Of a stretch of 64,000 nucleotides of DNA, positions 3,323-48,495 are shown piece by piece (positions within the stretch are counted from its first letter, which is position 1; each line of letters opens with the position of its first letter). The translations under genes were made by a program, and so were the position numbers. Below the pieces are notes generated by a model, which was not told the DNA's origin, searched no databases, and saw only the letters and a list, made by a program, of their open reading frames with translations. Source of the stretch: an uncultured Gammaproteobacteria bacterium (lineage in GTDB: Bacteria; Cyanobacteriota; Vampirovibrionia; JBFMGH01); the NCBI GenBank assembly GCA_964517135.1, contig CAZFBA010000002.1, forward strand, positions 89,267 through 153,266, in the 5' to 3' direction.

Positions 3323-3338
3323 TAACACATATGTGTTA
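3323..3338. repeat. Copy 1 of a dispersed palindromic 16-mer TAACACATATGTGTTA at the convergent junction of 2517..3320(+) and 3336..3920(-)
   Basis: Perfect 16-bp palindrome. It starts 2 nt after the plus-strand stop codon and contains the minus-strand stop codon. Confidence 0.8.
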
Positions 3339-3920
3339 ACACTTCTCTATACACCTGAGAATTTCTTTTTTCCAGTCGTCATTTTTTTCTACGAAGGTTC
3401 TGGCGCCGTTGTTGAGGCAATATTCTACACTGGAGGCATTTGCAGTTCCTGACATAACAATAATTTTAGTTGGCAGGTTTTCCATATCGATTTTATTTTT
3501 GAGTGAGCTTAAAAGAAATAGCCCGTCTTCTTTTTCTGGCAGGTATAGATCCATCAGCACATGGGAAAACAGATGTGATTTAAAGTGTGAGATGGCTTCT
3601 GGTGCGCTTCTTGCAAGTGTTACTTTGTAGCCCATTTTAGAGAGTAAGATGCTTAATTGATAGGTTACCATTACCAGGTCGTCGACCACCAGGATGTTGT
3701 TTTTTACTTTTTCGTCTCTTTCGATGGGGTCAAGTGCGAGAAGGTTTCGTATAGGCTCAAAATGGTCTTTTTCTATGGTTGATAATTTTTCTCTTATTGT
3801 TAATACGAGTTGTTGCAATTCTTCTTCTGTTGGTGGTATAGAGTTTTTAATTCCTGCGCTGAGGAAAAGCTCTTTTAAAAGGTTATAGTTGACGTTTACT
3901 TTTTCTGGAATGTTATCCAT
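3336..3920 (-). CDS. Single-domain response regulator: CheY-like receiver domain preceded by an ~80-aa N-terminal region of unknown function
   Basis: C-terminal receiver-domain signatures: the acidic pocket ILVVDD, the phospho-acceptor region VLMDLYLPEKDG and the T/K motifs IIVMSG ... K. There is no DNA-binding output domain. Confidence 0.7.
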   Translation of the reverse strand: MDNIPEKVNVNYNLLKELFLSAGIKNSIPPTEEELQQLVLTIREKLSTIEKDHFEPIRNLLALDPIERDEKVKNNILVVDDLVMVTYQLSILLSKMGYKVTLARSAPEAISHFKSHLFSHVLMDLYLPEKEDGLFLLSSLKNKIDMENLPTKIIVMSGTANASSVEYCLNNGARTFVEKNDDWKKEILRCIEKC

Positions 3921-4015
3921 TCTTTTTTAACCCGTATAATAAAAAATTATTCTATGACCTGTTTATAGTATAGATGATTCTGTTTTGTTATGGAAATAGA
4001 AATTGTGAATTTAGT

Positions 4016-4044
4016 AAAAGCCCTTCTGAAAAGAGAGGGCTTTT
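4016..4044. terminator. Bidirectional rho-independent terminator hairpin between rpmA and the response-regulator gene
   Basis: aaaagccct..agggctttt: a GC-rich 9-bp stem flanked by an A-tract on one side and a T-tract on the other. Confidence 0.6.
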
Positions 4045-4102
4045 ATTAGTTTTTTAGTAATTTTTTAGTGTATTTTTTCAATATTAGCCTGAATTAAGCA
4101 GA

Positions 4103-4366
4103 TTAATTTTCTGCTGTTTCGTACACGCTAACTTTTTTACGATCTTTTCCATAGCGTTCAAAAGTAACTATACCGTCGATGAGAGCAAAAAGTGTGTCGT
4201 CTCCGCCTCTTTCAACATTGTTGCCCGGGTGTATTTTGGTTCCACGCTGGCGTACAATGATGTTGCCTGCACGGACGACTTCGCCACCATATTTTTTAAC
4301 GCCGAGACGTTTTGATGCGCTATCACGGCCGTTTCTTGTTGAGCCTACACCTTTTTTGTGTGCCAT
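4103..4366 (-). CDS. rpmA: 50S ribosomal protein L27
   Basis: [24 protein letters not shown]...[18 protein letters not shown] is the canonical bL27 sequence pattern. Confidence 0.95.
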
Positions 4367-4390
4367 TTATCTTTACCTCTTGTTATCGGG

Positions 4391-5062
4391 TTATGACTCT
4401 TTTTCTTCTTTTGTTTCTTCTGTTTGGTCAGTGGTCTCAGCGGTCTCAGGTGTCTCAGTTGTTTCCTGTGTTTGTGTTATTTCAGTATTTCCGGTTGTTT
4501 CAGCTGTTTCTATAGTTTCAGTTGTTTCGTCAATAATTGTTTCTTCGAGTTCTTCTGGTTCTGGTGTTTCAGTTTTCTCTGGTTTTTTAGTTTTTTCAGG
4601 TTTTGCTACTTTTTTTCTGGCTTCTTTTTTAGCTTCTTTTGCTGCCAGTTTCTTTTCGTATGCTTTTTTAATTTTATCTTCTTTTTCCTGTTGTTTCTTT
4701 TCAACTTGTTTTTGCTGTTCTTCGTCGTATTTTACGGTATCTTCTTTATTTGGAAATTCTATTTCTTCGATGAGTATTCTTGTATAGTCCTGTCTGTGCC
4801 CTTTTTTAAGGCGATAGCCTTTTTTACGTCTCATTTTATAGGCAATAACTTTTTTGGTTTTGTCGTGTTTAAGAACTTTTGCTTTGACTGTTGCGCCATT
4901 AATGTAAGGTTGACCTATTTGAGAGTGTTCACCTGCTATTATGGCAACAACTTTATCAATATTTATATTGGTATCAGGGGTGACGTTTAAGAGATCGACG
5001 TCAATATATCTGCCTTCCTGAACCTGGTACTGTTTTCCACCTGTTTCAACTACAGCGTACAT
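4391..5062 (-). CDS. rplU: 50S ribosomal protein L21 with an unusual ~120-aa low-complexity C-terminal extension rich in Lys, Glu and Thr
   Basis: The N-terminal 103 aa ([23 protein letters not shown]...[18 protein letters not shown]) are canonical bL21. The tail is poly-K/E followed by TETxET repeats. Confidence 0.9.
4400..4560. repeat. Short tandem and near-tandem repeats (GGTCTCAG / GTTTC units) encoding the Thr/Glu repeat tail of rplU
   Basis: cagtggtctcagcggtctcaggtgtctcag and repeated gtttc motifs are visible in the nucleotide sequence. Confidence 0.6.
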
Positions 5063-5259
5063 TGTATTATTCCTTTGCTTCTAGTGATTATAAATTAATT
5101 GTACCAATATATCCCCTTCTCAGAGGGACGCAACCTAATATAACAACATAAAAATTCCTTGTCAACAAATAAACTCATGGCTCTTTTCTCTTTAAATAGG
5201 TAAAATAGATATAAGACAAAATGTTTCGTATTTTTAAGTGTGCATGAGTTTTTGTAATA

Positions 5260-5997
5260 ATGCGAGATAATTCTGTTATTTATCTGTCGGTTGTTATTCC
5301 AGCTTATAATGAAGAATTAAGATTGCCTCCAACTCTTGATTCAATATTTAATTATCTTGATTTAAGAGATTATGACTATGAAGTGATTGTTGTTGATGAT
5401 GGAAGCAATGATAGTACGGTTGATATTGTAAAGCGTAATCCACGTTATGGCAGTCAGTTAAATCTTATAGAGCTTAATAATAACTATGGTAAGGGTTACA
5501 CTGTAAAAAAAGGTTTTGAAGTTGCGAAAGGCGACTATATTATTTATACTGATGCGGATGGTGCTGCTCCTATTGAAGAGTTAGAGAAGCTTTTAAAGGC
5601 TATAAATGATGGAGCTGATATTGCAATTGGTTCTCGAGCTTTAAAAGATTCTCAGGTCAAAGATCTCTGGTACAGGAGAATCATGGGTATTACTTTTAAT
5701 ACAATGATAAAGATAATAGTCATTGGTGAGTATGATGATACACAGTGTGGTTTTAAGCTTTTTAAGGCTGAATGTGCCAGAAAAATCTTTGATAAATTGA
5801 AATTAAGAGGTTTTAGTTTCGATGTAGAGTTATTATTTCTGGCTAAAAAGCTGGGTTTTAGTGTATCAGAAGTCCCTATTGTCTGGAATTCTATACCAGG
5901 AACCAAGTTAAATCTTTTAATTGATTCACCTTTGATGTTTCTGGCTGTTTTAAAAATAAGAATAATGGCTCTTCTTGGCTGGTATCGATTCAAATAG
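5260..5997 (+). CDS. GT2-family glycosyltransferase, polyprenyl- or dolichyl-phosphate sugar synthase type (DPM1 / ArnC / GtrB-like)
   Basis: The VVIPAYNEE start, the VDDGSxDxT and YTDADG (DxD) motifs, and a C-terminal membrane-association segment. Confidence 0.8.
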   Translation: MRDNSVIYLSVVIPAYNEELRLPPTLDSIFNYLDLRDYDYEVIVVDDGSNDSTVDIVKRNPRYGSQLNLIELNNNYGKGYTVKKGFEVAKGDYIIYTDADGAAPIEELEKLLKAINDGADIAIGSRALKDSQVKDLWYRRIMGITFNTMIKIIVIGEYDDTQCGFKLFKAECARKIFDKLKLRGFSFDVELLFLAKKLGFSVSEVPIVWNSIPGTKLNLLIDSPLMFLAVLKIRIMALLGWYRFK

Positions 5998-6199
5998 TGC
6001 TTTATAAAATTTTTTTATTGATTCTACTCTATTTAATTGGTTCAATTTCAGTCTATTCGTTCTAAAATTTTTGTAAGAGTCAGTATAAACCTTAATCTTT
6101 TAATATGACTAAAAAGCTTGTTAAACGGGAGATAGTGAAGAAAAAAGTTCTTTTTTGCTTTTTATATAGCTTTTATCTGCAATTCATGAGGTGTTGTTT

Positions 6200-7498
6200 A
6201 TGAAACTTGCAGTTATAGGAGGGGGTTTCTCTGGCGTTATGCTAACCAGGCTCCTTCAGGAAAAAGGATATGAATGTCACCTTTATGAAAAGGAGTCATC
6301 TTTAGGTGGTTTGTGTCGCTCAAAGCGTATTAAAAACTTTATATATGATCTTTCCGGTGGGCATATGCTCTATTCAAAGAATGAAAAGACATTAGAATAT
6401 ATTTTTAACCTTACAGGAAAAGAGAACTGGAATAAAATTTCTTGCAATGCCAGAATATACTTTGAAGGAGATTATATAAGATATCCTTTTGAGGCAGGCT
6501 TAATTGATTTGCCGAAAGAATTGCATTATGAATGTTTGCTGGGTTACATTAATGCCAGTTATGAGCGCAAATATTATCACAGGGGAGATCCAAAAAACTT
6601 CTATGACTGGCTTTTGTATATGTTTGGCAAAGGTATTTCAAGTCATTTTATGATTCCGTTTAACCAGAAAAAGTGGAATTATAACCTGAAACATATAAAT
6701 ACCGATTGGGTTGAAGACAGAGTTCCGTCAATACCTGTAGAAGAGGTTATTAAAGCCTCTATTGGTATTCATACCTCTGCTTGTACAGATAAGCTTGTAC
6801 TTTACTATCCTGAAAAAGGCGGTTTTCAGTTTCTTATTGAAAAAACAGCCTCTAATCTCAAAGATATTCATCTTTCTACACCGGTTAATGACCTTAAGAG
6901 GCAAAAGAATAAATGGATTATAAATGATACTGAGGTTTATGATGATATCATATCGACGGTTCCTTTACGTGAATTGATTCATATAATAAAAAATACACCT
7001 CCATTTGTGACGAGTACCCTTGAATCACTGTGGTATAACGGAGTTGCAACTGTCTTTGTTGGTCTTAATAAACCCTTTGAGCATAATTATAGTTGGGTTT
7101 ATCTGCCGCATAAAGAAAATGGCTTGTGTGATACTGTTACTTTTTTGTCAAATTTCAGTCAATACAATGCTCCTGCAGGGGCTGGCTCGCTTGTAGCTGA
7201 AATTACATATAAAGCCAAAACATTGCCTGAAAAATCTGAAACTCTTGTCAATACGGTTTTGAGTTCACTTGAAACCTGTAAAATTATTGATAAGAAAGAT
7301 GTTATCGTAACTGATAGCTATTTTTCTCCCTATGGATACCCTGTGTATGGCCTTAAGTATAACGAATTTAAGCAGATTATAAATAATTATCTTAATGAAG
7401 TAAGGCTAAAACGCTTTGGCAGGCTTGCTACACATTCTTACTATAACGTGGATACTATTATAGAAAAGGCGTTTGAGTTTGTTGAACAGTGGTATTAG
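6200..7498 (+). CDS. FAD/NAD(P)-binding flavoprotein resembling UDP-galactopyranose mutase (Glf / UGM)
   Basis: An N-terminal Rossmann motif (MKLAVIGGGFSGVMLTRLL..YEKxxxLGG), a GGHMLYS region and a C-terminal GRLATHSYYNVDTIIEKA, all UGM-like. The ATG at 6200 has a gaggtg RBS; the track's start at 6191 is a TTG. Confidence 0.55.
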   Translation: MKLAVIGGGFSGVMLTRLLQEKGYECHLYEKESSLGGLCRSKRIKNFIYDLSGGHMLYSKNEKTLEYIFNLTGKENWNKISCNARIYFEGDYIRYPFEAGLIDLPKELHYECLLGYINASYERKYYHRGDPKNFYDWLLYMFGKGISSHFMIPFNQKKWNYNLKHINTDWVEDRVPSIPVEEVIKASIGIHTSACTDKLVLYYPEKGGFQFLIEKTASNLKDIHLSTPVNDLKRQKNKWIINDTEVYDDIISTVPLRELIHIIKNTPPFVTSTLESLWYNGVATVFVGLNKPFEHNYSWVYLPHKENGLCDTVTFLSNFSQYNAPAGAGSLVAEITYKAKTLPEKSETLVNTVLSSLETCKIIDKKDVIVTDSYFSPYGYPVYGLKYNEFKQIINNYLNEVRLKRFGRLATHSYYNVDTIIEKAFEFVEQWY

Positions 7499-7499
7499 C

Positions 7500-9350: not shown

Positions 9351-10046
9351 TTGATTAAGACTATAAGGGTCAAGAGGATCATAAGAGGCTTTTTGCTGGC
9401 CAGGATTTAAAGACATTGCGGCTTGATTTGCACGTGATGGAGCTGTCCCCGCAAATGGACTGAAGTGCGGGCTAGTTGAATCACCTATTCTATATTCTGT
9501 ATTAAAGCTGTTTAAAGCTGGTGTTAAATTATTTTTAGTGAAAAGCGGTACCACCTTTTGTTTTACAAAATGAGAAACGAGTGGACCTGCTACAGATGCA
9601 CCAACTGCAAAGGCACAAATACTCTGGAATGGCCCTTTAAGGTTCATTAGCTTAGCAGCACCCTGCGCAGCCATACCGCTGAACCACCATGTCGCATGAT
9701 TAATAGCGGTATCTCTTTTCTCCTGTGGAGTATTTTTCTGTGCTACCTGATAAAGCCCTATCGTACCTGCAATAGCAGGTAGTAAATAATATGGAAGTAC
9801 CTTATTTAAATGCATTGTTGCTAGTGCTGCACCTCCAGCCCAGCTAACAAGAGTGTTTGTAAGTAAATCATTTCTTTTTTGCGGATCCTTCTCAGTGCCA
9901 AGCTTATAAGCCATATTGCCAATAATCAGCCCAGGCAAGACAAGTCTGCCAGGAGGTATGTTATAAAGACCTGATGCTGCCTGTCTCACTGTTTGTGAGG
10001 AGGCAGTTAATCCTGCTGCTGCTGGTATCTTGCTTACACTGACCAT
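9324..10046 (-). CDS. Hypothetical protein (240 aa), Gly/Ala-rich with possible membrane segments
   Basis: ORF with an ATG start that overlaps the 3' end of the GT-C gene convergently. No recognisable motif. Confidence 0.4.
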   Translation of the reverse strand: MVSVSKIPAAAGLTASSQTVRQAASGLYNIPPGRLVLPGLIIGNMAYKLGTEKDPQKRNDLLTNTLVSWAGGAALATMHLNKVLPYYLLPAIAGTIGLYQVAQKNTPQEKRDTAINHATWWFSGMAAQGAAKLMNLKGPFQSICAFAVGASVAGPLVSHFVKQKVVPLFTKNNLTPALNSFNTEYRIGDSTSPHFSPFAGTAPSRANQAAMSLNPGQQKASYDPLDPYSLNQLIPGGFLK

Positions 10047-10158
10047 ATGAGAGAGAATTTCCTTTTACTCGTTTCAAGTATATAATGATTGTGAAACTAA
10101 AAAATTGCGCTAAATCGTTAATTCTTACCCGTTATTTTAACTTATTTTAACATTTGTT

Positions 10159-10806
10159 ATGAAAGAAGAAGCCTCTACAAACAAAAGAGAACAGCTTGTT
10201 AAGAGCCTGAAACTTAAAGGAATCAGAGATAAAACTGTGCTGGATGCCATGATGAAAGTTCCCAGACATGCTTTTATAGATGAAAGCATCTGGATTGATC
10301 CATATGAAGATGCCCCCCAGCCAATAGGAGACGGACAGACTATATCACAACCCTATATTGTGGCTTTGATGACTGAATATTTAAAACTAAAAGGCAATGA
10401 AAGGGTTCTTGAGCTCGGTACGGGCTGTGGATATCAAACAGCCATTTTATGTGAACTGGCAGCAGAAGTTTATTCCATAGAGAGGATAAATAATTTATAC
10501 AAAAAGTCTAAAATCAATTTAGATAAATTAGGGTACTCTAATTATTATCTTAAGCAGGATGATGGTACAACAGGCTGGGCAGAAAAAGCACCTTTTGATG
10601 CAATTATTGTTACAGCAGCTTCTCCTGAAGTGCCACCACCCCTTCTGGAACAATTAAATATAAATGGCCGGCTGATTATACCTGTAGGCAAAGGCTCACC
10701 ACAGGACCTTATAGGTATTATACGGCATTCTGATGGCTATAAGAAAGAATACATATGTGGTGTCTATTTTGTTCCATTGATTGGCGAACATGCTTGGAAA
10801 AAATGA
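10159..10806 (+). CDS. pcm: Protein-L-isoaspartate O-methyltransferase
   Basis: DGQTISQPYIVALMTEYL and VLELGTGCGYQTAIL (SAM-binding motif I) are typical of PCMT. Confidence 0.9.
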   Translation: MKEEASTNKREQLVKSLKLKGIRDKTVLDAMMKVPRHAFIDESIWIDPYEDAPQPIGDGQTISQPYIVALMTEYLKLKGNERVLELGTGCGYQTAILCELAAEVYSIERINNLYKKSKINLDKLGYSNYYLKQDDGTTGWAEKAPFDAIIVTAASPEVPPPLLEQLNINGRLIIPVGKGSPQDLIGIIRHSDGYKKEYICGVYFVPLIGEHAWKK

Positions 10807-11195
10807 ATACATCTCTTTTTAAAGTGGCTATTTTTTTGATACAATTAAAACTTAATTGATCTTATAGTTCTTGTTGTACGGGTTTTGTTTTCTGAGAAAA
10901 TTTTTTCACCTCCCAAACATTATTTTTAATATTAATAGCACTAAGATTGTCATATAAAATGGTAAAAATTTAATAATATTTTAATTTTTCCTCTTATAAA
11001 ACGGTTTAAAAATTTACTATTCTTAAAATCTACTAAATTTGTAAAAAATAATTAAAATTTTGTATAAATGTGGAATAGAAATTATCGTTTCAGATCATTT
11101 GGCTTTATACTAGATATAGATATCAAAATTTTGATAATTTTGAAAATCTCTTTAAAACAAACTGGTTTGAATTTTTTTAGGAGGTTTATAATAAT

Positions 11196-11564
11196 ATGGA
11201 GCTTAAACAGGGCGACCTTGAAAATATTATACTTAATGCACTCTGGTTAATGGAAGAAGAAGATCAGGAAAAGATCGATGTCAGAGATGTTCAGGAAAGA
11301 ATAAGAACTGAAGATCAAAGCTGGGCTTATACTACGGTGAAAACCGTCCTTGACAGACTCGTTGACAAAGAACTGGTTCTAAGAATGAAAGATGGTAAGA
11401 AATACCTTTACCGTACTGTGATTACACGTGAACAAGCTGGCGAGGATGCTATTAAAAAGCTCGTTAAACAATACTTCCGCAATAATTTTACAGACCTGAT
11501 TTCATGCGCTGAACGCGTGGGTTTTACTCAGGCAGAGGCTAAGTCATTAGTCTCTATGTCTTGA
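11196..11564 (+). CDS. BlaI/MecI/CopY-family winged-helix transcriptional repressor; orphan (no BlaR1-type sensor adjacent)
   Basis: The LExxIMxxLW ... AYTTVxTxLxRLxxKxxV ... GKKYLY pattern of the penicillinase-repressor family, and a length of 122 aa. A 14-bp perfect palindrome ATCAAAATTTTGAT lies 60 bp upstream. Confidence 0.65.
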   Translation: MELKQGDLENIILNALWLMEEEDQEKIDVRDVQERIRTEDQSWAYTTVKTVLDRLVDKELVLRMKDGKKYLYRTVITREQAGEDAIKKLVKQYFRNNFTDLISCAERVGFTQAEAKSLVSMS

Positions 11565-11629
11565 TAAAAGATAATTTTTATTTATTGTTCTCTTTCTATG
11601 ACTCAATTTAAAGGCTATTAACCGTTAAC

Positions 11630-12207: not shown

Positions 12208-12221
12208 TTCTTTTGATAGTG

Positions 12222-16188: not shown

Positions 16189-18506
16189 TGCTAAACAAGT
16201 TTAAAGTTGTAAATAAAAGCGTTAAAAAGGTTGATGGCCTGTCTTTAGCCTGTGGGAAACCAGTATTTGCAGGAGATATGGACTCAAGAGGCTTGTTATG
16301 TGTTAAAATTCTCACATCAACAAAGGCTCATGCAAGAATAAAACATATTGATATTTCTAAAGCAGAGGCTTTACCTGGTGTTTATTGTGTTCTATGTCAT
16401 ACAAACGTTCCCCGTGTGCCAAGGACAACGGCAGGACAGGGTTATCCGGAGCCTTCTCCATATGATTCAGTTATGTTTGATAATAAAGTCAGGTTTGTTG
16501 GTGACAGGGTTGCAGCTGTAGCAGCAGAAACAGAAGAGATTGCAGAAGAAGCACTCAAGCTTATTGATGTAGAGTATGATATTTTAGAGCCTGTTTTAGA
16601 TCCAAAGAAAGCTATGGCTGATGGTGCACCTGTTATTCATGATCAGGATGACTGCAAGGTAATTATTCCAATTGCCTATGAGCCTCAAAAGAATATTTGT
16701 GCATACGTTGATGCCGTAGTTGGAGATACAGAAAAAGCATTTGCAGGGTCAGATTATGTTTTTGAAGGTGAATTTCATGCTCCTAAAGCCCAGCATTGTG
16801 CTACTGAACCTCATGTATCATCTGCACATCTCGATGATAAAGATAGAATAATTATTGTTACCAGTACACAGGTGCCTTTTCACGTTCGTCGTATTGTGGC
16901 ACAGACGCTTCAGCTTCCTATAAAGAAAATTAGGGTTATAAAACCCCGTGTTGGTGGTGCTTTTGGTAGCAAGCAAGAAATGTGTTTTGAGGATATTGTT
17001 GCCATGGTGACCCTGCGTACAGGGCGTTCATGTATGCTTAAATACACACGTGAAGAGGTTTTTGTTTCTTCTCGTATACGTCATGAGCAATATGTGACCC
17101 TTAAAGGTGGCCTTAATAAAGATGGTAAAATAACAGGCTTTGATATGTATGTTTTAAGTAACACAGGTGCCTATGGTTCACATGGTTTAACAGTTATGTG
17201 TAACTGTGGAAGTAAGGTTTTACCGCTTTATCCTGCTGAAAATCTGACTTTCAGGGGGCATGCAGTTTATACTAATTCTCCTGTTGCTGGTGCATACAGA
17301 GGGTATGGTGCTACACAGGCTGCTTTCGCTATGGAAGTTATAATTGACCAGATGGCTGAAAAGCTTGGTGTTGATCCTGTTGATTTCAGGCTGTCTCATC
17401 ACATTAAAGAAGGCCAGGGTTCACCTATTTTTCAGGCTCTAGGAGAAGGAAGAGAAGGCGTTGAGCAGAAAGTTAAATCTTGTGGTCTGCCAGATTGCAT
17501 AAAGCTGGGGGCAGAAGAGATAAACTGGAAACAAAAATACTATAAATCAAAAGATAACGGTACTATTAAACGAGGTATTGGTATGGCAGCCCTGATGCAG
17601 GGTTCATCAATACCTGAAATTGACATGGCTTCAGCTTCTATTAAGATGAATGAAGATGGTTCATTCAACCTGCTGGTAGGTGCAACAGATCTTGGTACTG
17701 GTAGTGATACTGTATTAGCGCAGATTGCTGCTGAAAATCTTGGTATAAGTGAAGAAGATATTATTGTTTATTCTTCTGATACAGATATGACGCCTTTTGA
17801 CGTTGGGGCTTATGCTTCTTCAACTACCTATCTCTCTGGTATGGCAGTTAAAAATGCTGCTGATATCGTTAAAGCACAGATTATTAGTGTTGTTAAAGAA
17901 ATGCTTAATGAAACTGACTCTGAATTTGAGTTTGATGATGGCATGATCAAGTCACTGACTTCAGGGAAAGAACTTGCGATGTCAGATGTAGCATTAAGGG
18001 CAATGTATCAAGAGAATCAGTTTCAGATTGGTGCTATTGGCTCTGCTATAAGTCATTCTTCACCCCCCCCATTTGCTGCGCACTTTGTAGAGGTTGAAGT
18101 AGATACTGAAACAGGTAAAGTAACGGTACTTAAATATGTTGCTGCTGTAGATTGTGGTACTGCTATTAATCCTAAACTGGCAGAAGGACAGACTGAAGGA
18201 GCTGTTTTAAATGGTATTAGTTATGCATTGACTGAAAATTACATATTGAATGATCAGGGCCGTATGTTGAATCCGAATTTCAGACATTACAAAACTCTAA
18301 GGTCAAATGATATTAAAGAATTAAAGACTATTATGGTTCCAACGTATGAGCCTACCGGGCCATATGGTGCAAAAAGTGTATCTGAAATTTCTATAAATGG
18401 TGCTATGCCTGCGATTTCAAATGCTATTTACCATGCGACCGGCGTAAGGCTTTATGACGCTCCATTTACACCTGATAAGGTGTTGAAAGCGCTGAATCAA
18501 AAGTAA
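16188..18506 (+). CDS. Molybdopterin-binding large subunit of a xanthine-dehydrogenase / aldehyde-oxidoreductase-family enzyme
   Basis: A 772-aa protein with the aldehyde oxidase / xanthine dehydrogenase a/b hammerhead and Mo-cofactor-binding regions (GGAFGSK, AYRGYG). Its ATG overlaps the stop of the preceding gene. Confidence 0.85.
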   Translation: MLNKFKVVNKSVKKVDGLSLACGKPVFAGDMDSRGLLCVKILTSTKAHARIKHIDISKAEALPGVYCVLCHTNVPRVPRTTAGQGYPEPSPYDSVMFDNKVRFVGDRVAAVAAETEEIAEEALKLIDVEYDILEPVLDPKKAMADGAPVIHDQDDCKVIIPIAYEPQKNICAYVDAVVGDTEKAFAGSDYVFEGEFHAPKAQHCATEPHVSSAHLDDKDRIIIVTSTQVPFHVRRIVAQTLQLPIKKIRVIKPRVGGAFGSKQEMCFEDIVAMVTLRTGRSCMLKYTREEVFVSSRIRHEQYVTLKGGLNKDGKITGFDMYVLSNTGAYGSHGLTVMCNCGSKVLPLYPAENLTFRGHAVYTNSPVAGAYRGYGATQAAFAMEVIIDQMAEKLGVDPVDFRLSHHIKEGQGSPIFQALGEGREGVEQKVKSCGLPDCIKLGAEEINWKQKYYKSKDNGTIKRGIGMAALMQGSSIPEIDMASASIKMNEDGSFNLLVGATDLGTGSDTVLAQIAAENLGISEEDIIVYSSDTDMTPFDVGAYASSTTYLSGMAVKNAADIVKAQIISVVKEMLNETDSEFEFDDGMIKSLTSGKELAMSDVALRAMYQENQFQIGAIGSAISHSSPPPFAAHFVEVEVDTETGKVTVLKYVAAVDCGTAINPKLAEGQTEGAVLNGISYALTENYILNDQGRMLNPNFRHYKTLRSNDIKELKTIMVPTYEPTGPYGAKSVSEISINGAMPAISNAIYHATGVRLYDAPFTPDKVLKALNQK

Positions 18507-18516
18507 TAGCAAGAAT

Positions 18517-18532
18517 AATACATATGTGTTAT
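18517..18532. repeat. Copy 2 of the dispersed palindromic 16-mer (TAATACATATGTGTTA) at the convergent junction of 16188..18506(+) and 18574..18813(-)
   Basis: Starts 10 nt after the plus-strand stop codon. 15 of 16 positions are palindromic. Confidence 0.8.
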
Positions 18533-18573
18533 GTTCGCCCGGACTGCTTTCGAGGTTCGGGCTTTTAGTTTAT

Positions 18574-19242: not shown

Positions 19243-20766
19243 GTGGGGATCTTTATGAGTTTGAGTTTAATGAACGTGCATGGCTTAAAGATTAACTCTC
19301 AAAATAAAAGAAGTCAGTTAATTACTAAAAATGATTCATTTGTTGCATTTAGAGGAAATAGTGTTCCCTCCTTAACTCCTCAGCTTGATGGTGACGTAGT
19401 CCAGTTTTCTAATAAGGCTTCTTCAAAAGATAAATTAAATAAGATTACACCTGAATTGCACCAGTTATTTGAGAAATTGCCTAAGACAGAGCTGCATATG
19501 CACCTTAGTGGCTCTACTCCCTTGAGTACAATTAGAGAAATAATGCGTGAAAACGGTATGTCAGAAGAAGAAATCGCAGAAGCTACAGATATAGACCCTA
19601 ATTTTGAAGGTTTGGATGATTTCTTAAAGACTTATTACAAGGTTGCATGGGTTGTGCAAAAGCCAGAACACTTTAAAAAAGCTGCATATCAGATTTGTAT
19701 GGATGCAGCAGAAGAAAACGTACGCTATCTAGAGATTAGAACCAGTGCAATAGGCAAAGGCGCACCAGCAGATGATATTTTACAGGCAGTATCTGATGGT
19801 ATTAATCAAGCCAGAAAAGAACTTTCAGCAAAGGGTTTTGATCAGAAAGCCAGGATTATTGTATTGTCTCAAAGACATCATTCACCTTTGGAATCTATGA
19901 AACATGCTGTCCTGGCAGAAGAATGGGCGAAAAAACCGGGCAGCCTTGTTGTAGGCTTTGATGTTGCAGGTCCAGAAGATGGATATCCTATTAGCTTCCA
20001 CGAAATGGCAATCAAATATGCTGCTAATAGTCCACATCTCAAAGTAACTGTTCATGCTGGCGAAACCCCTGGTTCTAAACTGGTTGCACCAAAGAAAAAA
20101 CCTGGTGAAGAGCTTTCAGAAAAAGATCAGAAAAAGCTTGAAGCTTTTGGTAATCTGGAAGTAGCTACAATAAATGAGCTGGCAGGTGCTAATGATGCTG
20201 CAAGTGATATAAGAAAAGTTAATAAAGGTATAGATGTTCAGTATGTACCTTCAGAATCAATGAAAAAAGCTATTCAGTATGGCACAGATAGGTTGGGGCA
20301 CGGCGTTCATATATATGATGATCCTGAAGTTTTCAGAACGATAAAAGAAAAACAGATTCCAATTGAGTCTCCACCCTGGTGTAACGTGCAGCTGGGTAGT
20401 GTTGATTCTTATCAGGCCCACCCAATTAAGAAGATGCTGGATGATGGCATTAATGTAAGCCTTTCAACAGATAATAGAACGATTTCTTCAACTACTTTAA
20501 CCAGAGAGTATGAAGAGCTTTATGCTAATAAGGTGGTTACAGACTGGAATGATATTAAAAACCTCGTTATTAATGGTGCTAAATCAGTCTTCCTGCCACC
20601 TCATGAAAGAGAGCAACTGGTTAAAGACTTTGAACAGGACCTAGAAAATATAGAAAATAACCCTGTTTTCAGTGAAGCCATTGATAAATATTTATCACCA
20701 GCCAGAAAAGCTATTACATTTGCAGGTAGAAAGCTTGCTGATGCTATCAAAACAAAAGCAGCGTAG
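19243..20766 (+). CDS. Adenosine / adenine / AMP-deaminase-family metal-dependent hydrolase carrying long insertions
   Basis: PKTELHMHLSGS, VHAGE, LGHG and SLSTDN match the adenosine-deaminase-superfamily signatures. It is 507 aa long, with an N-terminal extension and a ~70-aa insert between the HAGE and LGHG motifs. The start is GTG at 19243 or ATG at 19255. Confidence 0.7.
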   Translation: MGIFMSLSLMNVHGLKINSQNKRSQLITKNDSFVAFRGNSVPSLTPQLDGDVVQFSNKASSKDKLNKITPELHQLFEKLPKTELHMHLSGSTPLSTIREIMRENGMSEEEIAEATDIDPNFEGLDDFLKTYYKVAWVVQKPEHFKKAAYQICMDAAEENVRYLEIRTSAIGKGAPADDILQAVSDGINQARKELSAKGFDQKARIIVLSQRHHSPLESMKHAVLAEEWAKKPGSLVVGFDVAGPEDGYPISFHEMAIKYAANSPHLKVTVHAGETPGSKLVAPKKKPGEELSEKDQKKLEAFGNLEVATINELAGANDAASDIRKVNKGIDVQYVPSESMKKAIQYGTDRLGHGVHIYDDPEVFRTIKEKQIPIESPPWCNVQLGSVDSYQAHPIKKMLDDGINVSLSTDNRTISSTTLTREYEELYANKVVTDWNDIKNLVINGAKSVFLPPHEREQLVKDFEQDLENIENNPVFSEAIDKYLSPARKAITFAGRKLADAIKTKAA

Positions 20767-23988: not shown

Positions 23989-23992
23989 GTTA

Positions 23993-24130
23993 TTACCTGA
24001 TGCCTATTCTTTTGCGGCCTTTGGCTCTTCTGGACTTCAGTACTCTTCTGCCACCCGGTGTTGACATTCTTTCTCTAAAGCCACTTACTCGTTGTCTTTT
24101 CTTTCTGGTACCTTCAAGAGTCCTTTTCAT
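23993..24130 (-). CDS. rpmH: 50S ribosomal protein L34 (45 aa); not in the ORF track because it is under 60 aa
   Basis: Manual reverse-strand translation gives [45 protein letters not shown], the canonical bL34 pattern. It sits in the classic rpmH-rnpA order. Confidence 0.85.
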
Positions 24131-24295
24131 TGTTTTATCCTCTTTTTCATGTTTTGAAGTTTCTTTTAGCTTCTTACTATACTATAATCATGATTTATCA
24201 TCAATTAAAATTAACATCCGCTTAATGTAATAAAGATTTAAAGCAACTTTTAAGATACTATTATTAAGTTCAGGAAATTTCAACTTTTTTTAACT

Positions 24296-25624: not shown

Positions 25625-25640
25625 CAATACATATGTATTT
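25625..25640. repeat. Copy 3 of the dispersed palindrome (CAATACATATGTATTT; 14-bp perfect core AATACATATGTATT) at the convergent junction of dnaA(+) and the MscS gene(-)
   Basis: Located 7 nt after the dnaA stop. The core contains TACATATGTA. Confidence 0.8.
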
Positions 25641-28180: not shown

Positions 28181-28677
28181 ACCTTTACCCTAATACCTTA
28201 CTTTATTATTATTGTTGAATTTTTATGATAGTGTTTTTTATTTTTAATTAATATTATCCATATAATAGAAAACTTTGTTATATTTTAAGAGAAGATGATA
28301 AAAAAATAAACAAATAGCAGATATAAAAGTTAACAATTAGAGTTTAAAAGCAAATTTATTTCTGGGTTGAGAATAAGAACTATTATTATTATATCTTGAA
28401 AAGCTTGAAATAGTGATCCCTAAATTTTAAAAATTTTATTTGTTGGTGATATTATAATCTTTATTAATAAATATTTTTGAAATATAAAATATATCAACAT
28501 TTATTAAAATTAATCATAGATCCGGATAAAAAAATGACTAATATTCATACTAAATAATTAAAAGGATTCTTTTAGTTGTTTTATAGACTTTATTTATAAG
28601 AGTTTCAATGGTAGAAAAGAGTCTTTTAACATTCTTCAGGGAGATAAAACATATTTGTATCGATGATTTTTCTTACT

Positions 28678-28800
28678 TCATCGTGTGTATATTCTTTGCA
28701 ATTGCATTTTTCCTGATAGATAGAGATGATAGAGAGTATATCATCAGTTGATAGTCTAATCATTCTGCGCCCCCTGGGATTTTCGATTATTTTAGCCATT
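28678..28800 (-). CDS. Small ORF (40 aa) with a strong RBS, inside the long non-coding region; doubtful
   Basis: GGGAG lies 8 nt upstream of the ATG. The product MAKIIENPRGRRMIRLSTDDYTLYHLYLSGKMQLQRIYTR ends at a TGA, and its SGKM..IY stretch is weakly reminiscent of IF-1. Confidence 0.2.
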
Positions 28801-29242
28801 TTCAACTCCCTGTTAAAATTTGAAAGATCTCTGAAACGCTTTCAGGTTGTATGTTTTATTAATCGGCAGTAATGTTTAATAGTTTAGTAAAATAATCTAA
28901 ATAAATGCAAACTTTTTTCCCCCTGTATTATCTGAATTTGAGTTTTGTTTAATACTTGAATTTACTCTGAATGGGTTCTTTTATAGGTATTTTTTTTAAA
29001 TTTTATTTTTCTTGCTATTGTTCAGGCATTTTAACCTCTTAAAGTGCTTTTAAGATAGAAAAACCATTTGAATCATGTTTAAATTCCCTGTGGGATTAGT
29101 GATAGAGCGTTTTTTTGATCTGTTTGAAATTTGCTGTAATATTCCTTTTAAAATGATTTCTATTTATGTTATAACCCTTGCTAAGAGATCTTACTTTTAT
29201 GATTAATTTTCCAGATATAGATTGTTTAGAGAGGTAAGAAAA

Positions 29243-38577: not shown

Positions 38578-39524
38578 GAATATGGCCTGTTATATAGAAT
38601 TAAGAAGTTTAAATTTTTAAAGGGGTGTTTTTTTGCTTCTATCAATGAATAAATTTTAGTCTATCATAAAATGCAGTGCGTGCTTAATAATTCAATCAAC
38701 TTTGAAGTTTTGTTATTGAAGAAACTTAAGCTTCTGGTTTCTGAAAATACCTTGTAGTGTGCTTGTTTGCACTTTTTATATTTCCTTAACTTATCTTATT
38801 ATTGTTTATAGTATTAGTTGTTAGTTTTTTTTGCTTGAGCTATAAATTTATTATATTTTTTACGTAATTTAGCGTTAAAATAATCTAAACTCTTTTTAAT
38901 CTGTATTTTGAATTTTTTTGGTCGAAAAGATTATCTATGAGAGTAATATGTTGTTGAGTTCTACTGAGTATTCTCTCTAAATGTTATTTTATATTTATGT
39001 ATTGATTATAACTGAATATTGATCAAATGAAGGAGGTTGAGAATATATAAAATCCATGTTCTATCTTATTTTTACAGATTAAGCAGGTTGAAACTCCTTA
39101 AGCAGGATCTGTTTTCAATGTCAGGGCTATGCAAGTAGTACTTAAGAAAGAAGCATCATAAACAGTGATAAGACATGATACAAGAAAAATAAGAGCGTTG
39201 AAGTTTACCGGCAGTGTTTGGCTTTGCAGTAATTTGACTTCAAAACCTCTGAGCATACATGCTGTAAGTATGATGAATATTGAGCAAATTGAGAACAGTT
39301 TCTGTTAATTAATTTTAAGTTAAGTTTGTGAGGTAATTTTTAAGTTTAAATAAAAGGAAACAAGCCTATTTTAATATTCCTTAAATTTGACAGTTGCGTT
39401 TTTACCTGTACACTTTAGTTCTAGAAAGATAAAATCATCTGCACTGACTCCCCCAAAAGATTTATGCACAAATGAAACTTAAAAGTCGACTTAATGAAAC
39501 AATAATATGAGGAATGAATAAAAG

Positions 39525-40535: not shown

Positions 40536-40558
40536 GTTTCACAAGTAAAGGATAGTTT

Positions 40559-41608: not shown

Positions 41609-41714
41609 TTACCCTGACAGAAGCTATGAGCTGTGTTACTATAGCTCAGATTACAGGTATTCTTAAAGTTTATAGTATAATGAACGAAGTTCTATTGTAA
41701 TAGAAGCTTAGCCT

Positions 41715-41999: not shown

Positions 42000-42000
42000 C

Positions 42001-44229: not shown

Positions 44230-45535
44230 ATTCTTTTTCTCTTAAATCTGTTAAAATCATACCAAATTCAGGGAATGAAATTTTTATCCAGCTGGCGTTT
44301 TCAATAGTTACCGGGTTTTTAGCAGCCAGAGAAGCTATAGACAAAGCCATTGCTATTCTATGATCAAAGTGACTATTGCACATACAGCCGCCATCGATTT
44401 GTTCTTTTCCATTAATAATAAGCCCGTCTTCAGTTTCGGTGATATCAACTCCCATTTTTTTAAGTTCAGTAGATGTAGCTTTAAGCCGGTCAGATTCTTT
44501 ATGTCGGAGGTCCTGGGCGTCTTTGATGACAGTATTGCCTTCGGCGAGGGCAGCTGCAACAGCTATGATAGGTATTTCATCAATAAGAGTAGGTATTATT
44601 TCTCCTTCAATAGTTATGCCTTTAAGGTTTGATGATTTTACAATGATATCTCCAACAGCTTCTCCGCAGGTTTCTCGTTCATTTTCAAGTACGATATCAG
44701 CTCCCATTCTGGTTAATACAGATATTAGACCAGTTCTTGTAGGGTTGATACCGACATTTGTAAGTCTTATTTCAGATCCTTCTATTATTGTTGCAGCAAC
44801 AATAAAGAATGATGCAGAAGATATGTCTCCTGGTATCTTAATTTCTTTAGGTTGAAGTTCTGTTTGGCCTGTTATTTCAATTGTTAAACCGTCAACTTTT
44901 ATATCGACACCCAGGTATTTTAGGAATCTTTCAGTATGATCACGTGATTTTGCAGGTTCTATAATTCTTGAAGTGCCATTAGCATATAGCGAAGCCAGTA
45001 AAATAGCTGATTTAACCTGTGCTGATGCCAGAGGCATACTATATTCTATTGCATTTAGGTTTCCACCACAGGTTGTAATAGGTGCAACAGTGTTATTTTT
45101 GCGTGCATTAATCTGGGCTCCCATCATTTTCAGAGGCTTTATTACCCTTCCCATAGGTCTGTTTCTAAGGCTTTCATCACCTGTTAGAACACTGTAAAAT
45201 GACTGACCGGCTAGTATACCCATTATCAGTCTCATTGTTGTACCAGAATTTCCTGCATCCAGTATAAATTCTGGCTCTCTAAGTCCTTTTAATCCTTTGC
45301 CATTTACCAGTAAAGTTGATGAAGTTATAAATTCTATTTCTGCGCCTAGACTTTGCAGTATATTTACAGTGTTACGGCAGTCTGCACCAGAAGAAAAGTT
45401 CTTGATGTGAAGTTTACCATCGCATATAGCACCCAGTATGGCTGCTCTATGAGATAATGATTTATCTGATGGTATTTCAACAGAGCCTTTCAGGGGTGAA
45501 TTGGCGGGTATGATGTTTAATGTATCTATCGTCAC
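44210..45535 (-). CDS. aroA: 3-phosphoshikimate 1-carboxyvinyltransferase (EPSP synthase)
   Basis: LKGSVEIPSDKSLSHRAAILGAICDG and the overall 441-aa EPSPS pattern. GTG start. Confidence 0.9.
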   Translation of the reverse strand: MTIDTLNIIPANSPLKGSVEIPSDKSLSHRAAILGAICDGKLHIKNFSSGADCRNTVNILQSLGAEIEFITSSTLLVNGKGLKGLREPEFILDAGNSGTTMRLIMGILAGQSFYSVLTGDESLRNRPMGRVIKPLKMMGAQINARKNNTVAPITTCGGNLNAIEYSMPLASAQVKSAILLASLYANGTSRIIEPAKSRDHTERFLKYLGVDIKVDGLTIEITGQTELQPKEIKIPGDISSASFFIVAATIIEGSEIRLTNVGINPTRTGLISVLTRMGADIVLENERETCGEAVGDIIVKSSNLKGITIEGEIIPTLIDEIPIIAVAAALAEGNTVIKDAQDLRHKESDRLKATSTELKKMGVDITETEDGLIINGKEQIDGGCMCNSHFDHRIAMALSIASLAAKNPVTIENASWIKISFPEFGMILTDLREKEYGKQVF

Positions 45536-45859
45536 GTTATTCTATGCCTCAAATTCTCTGTATTAAATGTTAATCGGTGATTTATTTAATAGTTTGGCCT
45601 TGGTTGCCCTTATTTTAAGCTAAAAGAATATCTCTGTCTATTCATTTGAAAAAAAAGATAACAAAATGAATTAAATCTGTAAATTGTTGTTACAAAAGAG
45701 TTATCACTATTGTATGGCGTATATTCTGGTAAAAATTTGTAAAAAAAATCTTATGTGCTCTTTTAAACAGAGTCATGCTATACAATAATACCAATTGAAA
45801 GCTGTTTTTTATAGAAATCAGATAGTTTTCAAATTTTAAGCCCTAAAAACGCCATGTTG

Positions 45860-45888
45860 TTGACAGTAGATAATATTAGGGCTATTAT
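45860..45888 (+). promoter_or_regulatory. Sigma-70-type promoter upstream of rpmG (TTGACA-17-TATTAT)
   Basis: A near-consensus -35 and -10 with a 17-bp spacer, 34 nt upstream of the rpmG ATG. Confidence 0.5.
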
Positions 45889-45921
45889 TTAGTTCTGAAT
45901 TAGACCAAAAAGGTAAGAAAA

Positions 45922-46089
45922 ATGGCTGCTAAAAAAGAAAATAGAGTAGTAATTACTTTAGCTTGCGAAGATTGCAAACGCCGTAATTATTCTACGATGA
46001 AGAATAAAAAGAATACTTCAGGTCGTTTATCCGTTAAGAAGTATTGTCCCTTTGATAAAAGGCATACAGTACATAAAGAAACAAAGTAA
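45922..46089 (+). CDS. rpmG: 50S ribosomal protein L33 (55 aa); not in the ORF track
   Basis: Manual translation gives [55 protein letters not shown], a bL33 with its CxxC ... C Zn ribbon. Canonical position before tRNA-Trp-secE-nusG. Confidence 0.85.
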
Positions 46090-46100
46090 TAACCCTGCAG

Positions 46101-46173
46101 GCGTCCTTAGTTCAGTTGGTAGAACGTCGGTCTCCAAAACCGAATGTCGGGGGTTCGAGTCCTCCAGGGCGCG
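46101..46173 (+). tRNA. tRNA-Trp (anticodon CCA)
   Basis: Manual cloverleaf: acceptor GCGTCCT / AGGGCGC, D-arm GTTCAGTTGGTAGAAC, anticodon stem TCGGT / ACCGA with loop CTCCAAA, and the GGTTCGAGTCC T-loop. Confidence 0.8.
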
Positions 46174-46212
46174 ATCCTTTGTGTAGAATGATAAAATCAA
46201 GGTAAAATAACT

Positions 46213-46473
46213 GTGGTAGCGAAAAGTAATAATTCTCAATCAATCAGTAAAAAGCAAAAGAAAGATAAAGTGCAGGAGGTTTCTTTTCCGGAGCAAGTTG
46301 TAACTTATTTTAAAGGTGTGCGTTCAGAGTGGCATAAAGTTACATGGCCGGATAGACAACAAATATTAAGGGAAACTTTAGTAGTCATCGCTGTTACTAT
46401 TTTTGTTACGGTTTTGATCTATCTAATAGACATCATTTTAAGATTTCTACTGGGGTTTATTACGGTTAATTAA
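46213..46473 (+). CDS. secE: Preprotein translocase subunit SecE
   Basis: An 86-aa protein with a single C-terminal TM helix and an FxxGVRSEWHKVTWP region. GTG start. Canonical position. Confidence 0.85.
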   Translation: MVAKSNNSQSISKKQKKDKVQEVSFPEQVVTYFKGVRSEWHKVTWPDRQQILRETLVVIAVTIFVTVLIYLIDIILRFLLGFITVN

Positions 46474-46482
46474 TAGATAGGT

Positions 46483-47250
46483 ATGAGCATGGTAGAAGAA
46501 GAATTAAAGAAAGATCAGCAAGAAAACATAGTTGATGATATAAATGATCAGTCTGACCTGGATAATACACTAGTAGATGATGCTGAAAGCCGTTCAGATC
46601 AGGATGAAATGCTTGAAGAAGAATTCTCTGAATCTCCAGATGCTTTTGAAGAACCAGATTTAGAGGCCAAGGATAAAAAGTTTAAAGAAGAGGCTAAAGA
46701 AGCCAGAGAGAAAAAAGAAAAACCTAAAAAGAAGCGCTGGTACGTTGTTCATACGTATTCAGGGCATGAAAATAAAGTAAAAGTCAATCTTGAGAAACGG
46801 ACAGAATTTATGAATATGGGGCACAAGATTTTTCGTGTCGAAGTGCCTGAAAAAACTGTTTCTAAAGTTAAAGACGGAAAACGGGTTGACAGAGAAGAAA
46901 GACTGTTCCCGGGTTATGTTCTGGTAGAAATGATTATGGATGATGATAGCTGGTATGTTGTCAGACATACTCCTGGAGTTACCAAATTTGTCGGTGCTGC
47001 CAGAAAACCAATACCTGCAAGAGATTCTGAAATAAAGAAAATTCTGCGTCGCTCACAGACGAAAGTCTCTAAAGTAGAGATTGATATACAGGTGGGTGAT
47101 AAAGTAAGAATCATTAGCGGGCCTTTTGCTGATTTTGTTGGTGATGTTACTGAAGTATACCCGGATAAAGAGAAGTTACGTGCGAATGTTTCTATATTTG
47201 GCAGGGATACCCCTGTTGAATTAGAATACAGTCAAATACAAAAAGTCTAA
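46483..47250 (+). CDS. nusG: Transcription termination/antitermination factor NusG with an ~85-aa acidic N-terminal extension
   Basis: WYVVHTYSGHENKV (NGN domain) and the C-terminal KOW region GDKVRIISGPFADFVGDV. The N-terminal extension is strongly acidic (D/E-rich). Confidence 0.9.
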   Translation: MSMVEEELKKDQQENIVDDINDQSDLDNTLVDDAESRSDQDEMLEEEFSESPDAFEEPDLEAKDKKFKEEAKEAREKKEKPKKKRWYVVHTYSGHENKVKVNLEKRTEFMNMGHKIFRVEVPEKTVSKVKDGKRVDREERLFPGYVLVEMIMDDDSWYVVRHTPGVTKFVGAARKPIPARDSEIKKILRRSQTKVSKVEIDIQVGDKVRIISGPFADFVGDVTEVYPDKEKLRANVSIFGRDTPVELEYSQIQKV

Positions 47251-47275
47251 GCTGATTTAGGAAGGAATAAAAACC

Positions 47276-47701
47276 GTGGCTAAAAAAGTACTGGCTAAAA
47301 TAAAATTACAAATAGATGCAGGTAAAGCAAATCCATCTCCGCCAATTGGCCCTGCCCTGGGTCAGCACGGTGTAAACATAATGGATTTCTGTAAACAGTA
47401 TAATGCTAAAACACAGGATCAAGCAGGCAGTGTTATACCGGTTGAAATAACTGTTTTTGAGGATAGGTCATTTACTTTTATCCTTAAAACTCCGCCTGCT
47501 GCCGTTTTAATAAGAAAGTATGCCGGCCTTGAAAAAGGATCTTCCAGACCAAATACAGAGAAAGTCGGCAAACTGACCAAAGCACAGGTGGCAGAAATAG
47601 CTAAAATTAAAATGCCTGACCTTAATGCTACAACTCAAGAGGCTGCCGAGCAAATGATCCTTGGTACAGCAAGAAGTATGGGCGTAACACTAGCAGAATA
47701 G
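47276..47701 (+). CDS. rplK: 50S ribosomal protein L11
   Basis: [30 protein letters not shown] start with a ggaagg RBS. Confidence 0.95.
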
Positions 47702-47747
47702 CTATAATAAGGGGAGTCGTAAGGCGTTAATACCCTGAGGAGGAAAG

Positions 47748-48476
47748 ATGTCTAAATTAACAAAAAGAAAACAGGTAATACTGGAACTTCTGGAAGAAGT
47801 TGAACAGCCATGTAACCCTTTAGATGCTATTAAATCTTTGAGAGCAATCAGTGAAAAGGTTTCAAAATTTGATGAAACAGTTGAAGTGCATATGCGTCTC
47901 GGTATAAATGTTAAGCATGCTGATCAGCAGGTAAGAAGTACCGTCGTCCTGCCTGAAGGAACCGGTAAGGTGATACGTGTAGCCGTTGTAGCAAAAGGTG
48001 AAAAGGTTAAAGATGCTGAAGCTGCAGGCGCTGATGTCTCGGGTGGAGAAGATCTGATCGAAAAAATTAAAGAAGGTTTCCTTGACTTTGATACTTTGAT
48101 CGCTACACCGGATATTATGGGTCAGCTCAGTAAATTAGGTAGAGTTCTGGGGCCTAAAGGCCTTATGCCCAGTCCAAAAACAGGAACTCTAACTTTTGAA
48201 ATAGCAAAAGCTGTTAAAGATGCCAAGGCCGGTAAAGTCGAGTTTAGAGCCGATAAACAGGGTATGATCCACGTACCTATAGGAAAAATGAGTTTTACCG
48301 ATGATTCTTTAATCAAAAACTTTGCTGCTTTAACAGATGCTGTTATCAGGGTTAAGCCATCAGCAGCCAAAGGTACCTACATGAAAACGGTTTATCTCAC
48401 AACTACAATGGGCCCCGGTATTAAAATCGAGACAAACCAGCTGGCAAATGAAATTAAGCAATATTTAATTACTTAA
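47748..48476 (+). CDS. rplA: 50S ribosomal protein L1
   Basis: The uL1 pattern ([10 protein letters not shown] ... GKVIRVAV ... [13 protein letters not shown]). An aggagg RBS. Confidence 0.95.
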
Positions 48477-48479
48477 AAT

Positions 48480-48495
48480 TAATACATATGTGTTG
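48480..48495. repeat. Copy 4 of the dispersed palindrome (TAATACATATGTGTTG) at the convergent junction of rplA(+) and the sugar-transporter gene(-)
   Basis: Starts 4 nt after the rplA stop. Over its first 15 nt it has the same sequence as copy 2. Confidence 0.8.

Follow-up and report, generated by a model that had tools for sequence, protein, structure and literature searches.

Does a short palindrome that recurs behind stop codons mark the ends of converging genes, does it serve as the operator of a regulator encoded nearby, or is it a dispersed repeat? This question is raised by a 64-kb stretch of DNA (contig CAZFBA010000002.1, positions 89,267 to 153,266; hereafter the window) from an uncultured bacterium of the Cyanobacteriota (Vampirovibrionia), in which a 16-base near-palindrome with the consensus TAATACATATGTGTTA recurs between genes. 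A first-pass annotation of the window had concluded that the palindrome follows the stop codons at every convergent junction with intergenic space. We found that the motif is neither a universal mark of gene ends nor a terminator, and that its distribution is of an ordinary kind. We consider it about an even call that the motif represents a lineage-specific family of very short extragenic repeats resembling the repetitive extragenic palindromes (REPs), although atypically short and AT-rich.

Copies of the motif in the window

The 14-mer AAYACATATGTRTT had four exact matches in the window, at positions 3324, 18517, 25626 and 48481. When one mismatch was allowed, eight matches were obtained, compared with 0.14 expected from shuffled sequences and a maximum of one in any of 100 shuffles. 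All four copies that had been claimed exist and lie far above chance, although the second starts at 18516 and not at 18517 (the reported interval of 18517–18532 is off by one).

The genes next to each copy were identified from gene calls and Pfam matches. Copy 1 (3323..3338; TAACACATATGTGTTA, a perfect palindrome with no strand assigned) fills the 15-nt convergent gap between a gene for a 267-aa hypothetical protein (plus strand, stop codon at 3318–3320) and a response-regulator gene (minus strand); it starts 2 nt past the plus-strand stop codon, and its final TTA is the stop codon of the response-regulator gene. Copy 2 (18516..18531, plus strand) has the consensus form TAATACATATGTGTTA, with T4 opposite G13. 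It lies in the 67-nt gap between the gene for a xanthine-dehydrogenase-type Mo subunit (molybdopterin-dehydrogenase large subunit; plus strand) and a ThiS-family gene converging from 18574, starting 9 nt past the Mo-subunit stop codon and upstream of that gene's own terminator. Copy 3 (25625..25640; CAATACATATGTATTT, palindromic core of 14 nt, no strand assigned) is found in the 28-nt gap between dnaA and a converging MscS-family gene, 6 nt past the dnaA stop codon; the A8 run just before it would be read, on the minus-strand transcript, as U8 following the hairpin. Copy 4 (48480..48495, plus strand; TAATACATATGTGTTG) lies in the 75-nt gap between rplA and an MFS transporter gene converging from 48552, starting 3 nt past the rplA stop codon.

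The reported spacing of 2–10 nt past a plus-strand stop codon thus describes the four copies in the window (2, 9, 6 and 3 nt), but it fails for copies outside the window. Of the ten convergent junctions in the window, five have overlapping genes or a gap of no more than 3 nt, in agreement with the annotation's remark that the other convergent pairs have no room for a copy; however, a 14-nt convergent gap at 12208–12221 does exist and contains no copy. Together with four empty convergent gaps of the same species outside the window, this gap contradicts the statement that every convergent junction with space is occupied. That rule was over-generalized from four cases, although the observation itself is statistically solid.

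Partial matches within genes were observed at positions 10747, 15053, 33837 and 41220, where they code for peptides of the Y-I-C/S-I type. Relatives that lack the motif contain similar numbers of matches with two or three mismatches; such in-gene matches, two of which had been listed along with the motif, look like coding sequence or background and not like members of the family. No Rfam family matched any copy of the motif at the gathering threshold or at E ≤ 1, and a search for the exact motif sequences in the literature library used gave no relevant paper.

Distribution over intergenic gaps in the species

We enlarged the sample with approximately 54 kb of further DNA from the same species, for a total of approximately 118 kb. 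This DNA was reached through pattern scans of viral and metagenome contigs, in which the matches listed were mostly single chance occurrences and one was a locus of the same species (L262), and then through the proteins encoded in the flanks. The species has split rpoC1 and rpoC2 genes, which, like the source names of its protein homologues, indicate a member of the Cyanobacteriota/Vampirovibrionia. Three further exact copies of TAATACATATGTGTTA were found in the additional DNA, all on contig L341. The copy at 9760 belongs to a tandem gap and lies beyond a terminator, 181 nt past a stop codon and 240 nt before the next start codon; the copy at 16972 lies in a divergent gap and overlaps the called ATG of an HGD-D-family gene; and the copy at 20225 lies in a convergent gap, 87 nt past the plus-strand stop codon.

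All seven copies in the sample are therefore intergenic (five convergent, one tandem and one divergent), at a density of about one copy per 17 kb. Convergent gaps account for only 968 of the 15,019 intergenic bases (6.4%) but hold five of the seven copies (binomial P = 2e-5 for at least five), which shows a real and strong preference for convergent junctions. Yet this preference is neither exclusive nor complete, with half of the convergent gaps of at least 14 nt (5/10) occupied. The empty gaps outside the window are that between rpoC2 and a gene for a 169-aa protein (128 nt), which carries two ordinary terminators, and those at 3823–3862 (40 nt) and 10703–10892 (190 nt) of L341 and at 19300–19516 (217 nt) of L347.

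The k-mers of the motif are by far the most repeated non-trivial 12- to 14-mers in the sample, which contains no second repeat comparable to it. Individual copies are stable across several assemblies of the species: copy 1 is kept in contigs L328, L347 and L348, copy 4 is identical in contigs L001–L004, and no structural variation among strains was found at the latter, the rplA copy.

Other intergenic repeats were observed in the same species (L345 12801–13480; L347 14600–14700). One is a unit consisting of a hairpin and a T-run, AAAACTACCGGAG...CTCCGG. Another is a 55-nt sequence, AATTCAGGYATTCRAYAAACTCTTGTCATTACRAGGAGGGCTCTTAGCCCGACGT, which is present twice around a GC-rich stretch of approximately 300 nt in a 680-nt gap; a non-coding RNA or a small mobile element may be located here. 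Just to the right of the window there are at least six flagellin paralogues (66–70% identical at the DNA level) (L333 17184–21128; L345 19505–21008), where the assemblies break. The flagellin paralogues at the facing ends suggest that L341 and L345 adjoin the window in reverse orientation, with no overlap of sequence.

Absence of the motif from 34 kb of each of three relatives

Among 5.8 billion proteins, the nearest DnaA homologues were 57–65% identical, and nothing at 65–99% was found besides fragments of the same species. We compared the neighborhoods of dnaA and of the BlaI-family gene in three relatives (DnaA 60–65% identical; approximately 34 kb each; contigs L205/L206, L207 and L208). 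Gene order is kept over this distance and includes genes for a GGDEF protein, the response regulator and ribosomal protein L21, pcm, the BlaI-like gene, the xanthine dehydrogenase genes, the ThiS gene, mnmE, yidC, rnpA, dnaA and dnaX.

No copy with up to two mismatches was present at any junction in the 34 kb from each of these three relatives, nor was a repeated palindrome of any other kind found there. The junctions orthologous to copies 1–3 (hypothetical 267-aa protein/response regulator, Mo subunit/ThiS, and dnaA/next gene) lack the motif in all three; they have unrelated short spacers or, at two of them in L205 (the dnaA junction included), an ordinary GC hairpin with a T-run. The dnaA/MscS arrangement is conserved in L205/L206, whereas in L207 and L208 a plus-strand hypothetical gene follows dnaA and the junction is not convergent. 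As a negative control, the dnaA regions of 80 other bacteria among the matches listed (1.44 Mb; mostly Clostridia, the closest of those listed having a DnaA 49% identical) contained zero matches to the motif. The motif does not keep its position in the three relatives, and its absence from them and from the other dnaA regions argues that the family arose in this lineage.

Unit, asymmetry and folding

Since the seven copies share no flanking sequence, the repeated unit is 16 nt long. T4 stands opposite G13 in five of the seven copies, and in the copy at 48480 T1 likewise faces G16. At the 4/13 pair, the two variant copies show C–G or T–A, single-step changes that restore pairing. The mirror form, C4...A13, was never observed on the strand of the adjacent plus-strand gene in the seven copies. 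This asymmetry hints at either a strand-specific element, acting in the sense transcript, or descent from one asymmetric master copy.

As RNA, the consensus forms a 6-bp stem with a 4-nt loop on the strand of the plus-strand gene (–2.2 kcal/mol), compared with 0 on the opposite strand; the individual copies range from –1.5 to –4.1 kcal/mol, with stems of 5–6 bp and 0–2 GC pairs. Such a stem is too weak to terminate transcription or to block an exonuclease unaided. As single-stranded DNA, the consensus does not fold, which argues against a single-stranded DNA mechanism of the REP/RAYT type and against exonuclease blocking. Much stronger hairpins follow two of the copies. Behind copy 2, a plus-strand terminator (18537..18572) has a 9-bp stem with six GC pairs followed by TTTTAGTTTA, and behind copy 4, a plus-strand hairpin (48499..48535; GAAAGGCUGCCAUAAUAGCAGUCUUUC) is followed by a T-rich stretch; both belong to the context of the motif and not to the repeat. 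At 18516 and 48480, the motif would lie within the 3' untranslated end of the plus-strand gene, ahead of its terminator. The earlier judgment that the motif is a poor intrinsic terminator agrees with these results.

Comparison with repetitive extragenic palindromes

The suggestion of a dispersed repeat family at the 3' ends of genes fits the seven near-identical intergenic copies in approximately 118 kb, which have no conserved flanks and lie mostly in convergent gaps. All REPs of Escherichia coli are extragenic, with approximately 60% in convergent, 40% in tandem and 1% in divergent gaps, and approximately 30% of the convergent gaps are occupied (bioRxiv 10.64898/2026.03.23.713779). The motif resembles them in being repeated, palindromic and strictly extragenic (7/7), and in its convergent bias (a 5/1/1 split) and partial occupancy (5/10 eligible gaps). 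REP families are often species-specific, are located downstream of coding regions and are plausibly transcribed; their units are 20–40 nt long and carry a GTAG or CGTC tag (PMC3733652). REPs are spread over a genome in tens to hundreds of copies; the seven copies found here come from approximately 118 kb. The motif is likewise found in one species and mostly behind stop codons, and its G·T/G·U-type stem imperfections are also shared with REPs. However, it has neither a 20- to 40-bp unit nor a stable GC-containing stem; no GTAG or CGTC occurs in or beside any of the seven copies; all copies are single, with no inverted doublets or arrays; and the genes called in the sample (118 kb) include no RAYT transposase (IS200/IS605-type Y1). 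The motif is REP-type in behavior but, given that the length, the tag and the stable stem differ, would be a new, short, AT-rich variant, not a member of the known group.

According to this interpretation, the family would have arisen and spread in this melainabacterial species after its split from the nearest sequenced relatives. The copies were most likely placed by a copy-and-paste or templated process, and may persist where they interrupt neither promoters nor coding sequence. Their genomic behavior is that of a REP-type element, in that copies are found mainly behind the stop codons of convergent genes, more rarely in tandem gaps, and almost never in divergent gaps, which bear promoters. 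The copies would be transcribed within the 3' untranslated end of the upstream gene, where the consensus is predicted to form its small 6-bp hairpin on the sense strand only. Given the weakness of this hairpin by itself, a sequence-specific partner would be needed to influence RNA ends or read-through, and the effect would probably be modest.

Several results weigh against a REP-like origin. The unit has 16 nt where described REPs have 20–40 nt, it is AT-rich, and it carries no GTAG/CGTC end tag; its hairpin is marginal, and there is no folding of the single-stranded DNA. The loop is as strictly conserved as the stem, which points to sequence-specific recognition, possibly of duplex DNA, over structure alone. 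With seven copies, the orientation bias is suggestive only (P ~0.03–0.06). The genes called in the 118 kb sampled include no transposase of any kind. Finally, the sample comprises only seven copies, possibly all within approximately 75 kb of dnaA, and any genome-wide copy number is an extrapolation from them.

Alternative explanations

In the main rival explanation, the motif is a duplex site for a sequence-specific dimeric protein of the lineage, either nucleoid-associated or a global regulator, which at gene ends would block read-through between converging genes or organize the local DNA topology. We regard this as a possible, though doubtful, explanation. The 7-2-7 near-palindrome has the size of a typical operator and is equally invariant in loop and stem; its hairpin is too weak to act alone; two copies occupy gaps of 15 and 28 nt, which leave no room for a terminator; the L341 16972 copy lies within the spacer of a plausible TTAAGA-17-TATTAT promoter; and the same palindrome occurs in promoter spacers of an unrelated phage contig. 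However, five of the seven sites are at 3' ends instead of promoters, the motif is missing from half of the eligible convergent gaps, among them long ones with ordinary terminators, and the relatives manage the same junctions without it. The consensus is asymmetric and one-sided, an orientation that a homodimer site would not need, and no lineage-specific DNA-binding gene was identified. A more specific proposal is that a lineage-specific protein recognizes the 16-mer, as duplex DNA or as a hairpin in the sense-strand RNA, and stops or processes read-through at converging ends. We consider this improbable; if true, it would constitute a factor-dependent, sequence-addressed gene-end system in a relative of the cyanobacteria, replacing ordinary terminators in gaps of 15–28 nt. 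That the motif acts as a bidirectional intrinsic terminator in its own right is very unlikely. Its place behind stop codons at convergent junctions would suit this role, as would the minus-strand transcript at 25625, which would carry the hairpin followed by U8. This copy is the only one with a U-run, and on the minus strand only; the remaining six of seven have no U-tract, all stems are as short and weak as described above (5–6 bp, 0–2 GC pairs, –1.5 to –4.1 kcal/mol), a separate and stronger hairpin with a T-run stands behind 18516 and 48480, and of the L341 copies, one lies beyond a terminator (9760) and one beside a start codon (16972).

The regulator gene at 11196–11564 was confirmed as BlaI-family by a match to PF03965 (Penicillinase_R; E = 4.5e-22); the cysteine motif of CopY was looked for in its product and is absent. 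BlaI, MecI and CopY recognize TACANNTGTA, and the OP1 operator of Bacillus licheniformis is AAAGTATTACATATGTAAGATTTA (PMC1935004); the refined 16-base consensus of the CopY family is RNYKACANNTGTMRNY (PMC7253601). The resemblance that the annotation had pointed out is genuine. The motif core TACATATGTA/TACATATGTG agrees with TACANNTGTA at 8–10 of 10 bases (all ten in copy 25625, nine in five other copies and eight in copy 3323), the motif agrees with OP1 at 12–13 of 16 bases, and the central TACATATGT(A/G) core is common to both. However, the functional link to the regulator is unsupported, because four results disagree with it. The three relatives, whose 34-kb regions are free of the motif, all keep the regulator at the same position (89%, 76% and 74% identity) as a core gene conserved in the group, so that motif and regulator do not co-vary. 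The 389-nt region upstream of the gene and its conserved counterpart in the relatives have no copy of the motif, and in the conserved 170 nt of this region the invariant element, CTACTAAATTTGTAA, is spaced differently. The motif TAATACATATGTGTTA departs from the refined consensus RNYKACANNTGTMRNY at positions 1, 3, 13, 14 and 16, which places its flanks outside that consensus. Lastly, known operators are located in the promoters of the regulated genes and of the regulator gene itself, whereas five of the seven copies of the motif are at 3' ends. An operator of this BlaI/MecI/CopY-family repressor would thus seem a most improbable identity for the motif. Less probable still, in our view, is a centromere-like (parS-type) array of 16-bp palindromes near dnaA, bound by a partition or nucleoid-occlusion protein. 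The parS sites and the other chromosome-organizing sites NBS and SBS are likewise palindromes of 14–16 bp in a handful to tens of copies and are bound by a dimeric protein; the motif is a 16-bp palindrome with several copies over approximately 100 kb including dnaA, and all of the sampled DNA may adjoin dnaA, so the copies may be confined there. By inspection, however, the motif shares no more than 8 of 16 bases with TGTTNCACGTGAAACA. The best match to canonical parS in the window has three mismatches, as expected by chance, and none was found in the dnaA regions of the relatives, which have neither the motif nor another repeated palindrome there. Moreover, the 118 kb sampled contain no parA or parB gene, there is no switch of GC skew at dnaA, and a strong bias toward convergent gaps is not a property of parS.

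Further candidates were rejected. The core contains CATATG, and an overrepresented restriction-type palindrome had been proposed; avoidance of this site was not seen, with 26 occurrences of CATATG in the window. An extended –10 promoter (TGTGTTAnnnT) fits only L341 16972 and, weakly, L341 20225, and is not general. A transposon-end junction, a Tc1-type target and an excision footprint had no element or flanking structure in support. DNA uptake sequences occur approximately once per kilobase, with many inside genes; in contrast, the motif occurs about once per 17 kb with no exact copy in a gene, and this density is too low for such a function. The motif may resemble the dRS3 and DNA-uptake-sequence pairs of Neisseria and similar palindromes, which are short, lineage-specific and concentrated in intergenic 3' regions.

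The same palindrome in other organisms and further features of the window

The palindrome TAACACATATGTGTTA was also found in unrelated contigs. In L061 (IMG/VR), a phage-like contig, it occurs at 5311–5326 and 6396–6411, both times within the spacer of a TG-extended TTTACA-17-TATAAT promoter, which is itself repeated, and this arrangement appears to be the layout of a repressor operator. At least 17 short marine metagenome contigs (L223, L226, L228, L241, L244, L246, L247, L249, L254, L257, L267, L278, L279, L298, L299, L315 and L319), at least one of which is also in the viral collection, share the arrangement TTAACTAGAATTT-TAACACATATGTGTTA-(A-rich)-AAGGAG just upstream of a gene; this is probably a regulatory site conserved in a group of marine phages or hosts that has no relation to the organism of the window. 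Four Ga0123341/Ga0123342 contigs (L209, L219, L229 and L251) share AAAAGAAAATGGTGATTAGA-TAAYACATATGTGTTA-TATTTGGATTGTAGGCATGT with few long open reading frames nearby, which would be a conserved non-coding locus of another organism.

Upstream of the BlaI-family gene at 11196, a non-coding region of approximately 170 nt (10985–11150) is 78% identical across four species, compared with only 60–65% identity for DnaA. It contains the invariant element CTACTAA(A/G)TT(T/C)GTAAAAAAT, i.e. CTACTAA(A/G)TT(T/C)GTAA, and the region is a candidate autoregulatory operator, promoter or small RNA. Each of the sixteen 4-kb bins of the window has a positive GC skew, with no change of sign at the rnpA–dnaA gap (23989–24295); the replication origin may therefore not be at this dnaA, or skew may be unrelated to replication here.

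Following the gap that holds copy 4, the usual rplKA–rplJL order is broken at 48552–54372 by three minus-strand genes, which encode the MFS transporter, a GH100-family enzyme and an alpha-amylase; an L10 leader (RF00557, 70.5 bits) is located at 54722–54867, before rplJ. The gene for ribosomal protein L21 (4391–5062, minus strand) encodes 223 aa, of which only residues 1–101 form the L21p domain, and a similarly long C-terminal extension is present in the three relatives (206–216 aa). Two unusually long divergent gaps, 28181–29221 (1041 nt) and 38578–39524 (947 nt), contain no open reading frame of at least 80 aa and no Rfam match.

Significance for the lineage

To our knowledge, small dispersed repeats have hardly been described in Melainabacteria (Vampirovibrionia). 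Here a REP-like pattern is produced by a unit of half the usual size with almost no hairpin stability. This suggests that the pattern is shaped by the tolerance of certain sites for insertion, or by a sequence-specific partner, and not by a strong stem-loop. For binning and strain tracking, the motif provides a sharp species marker. If no partner protein exists, the motif would simply join the other families of intergenic repeats that are selfish or neutral; if one does, the marking of gene ends could be studied with a compact system in a lineage akin to the cyanobacteria.

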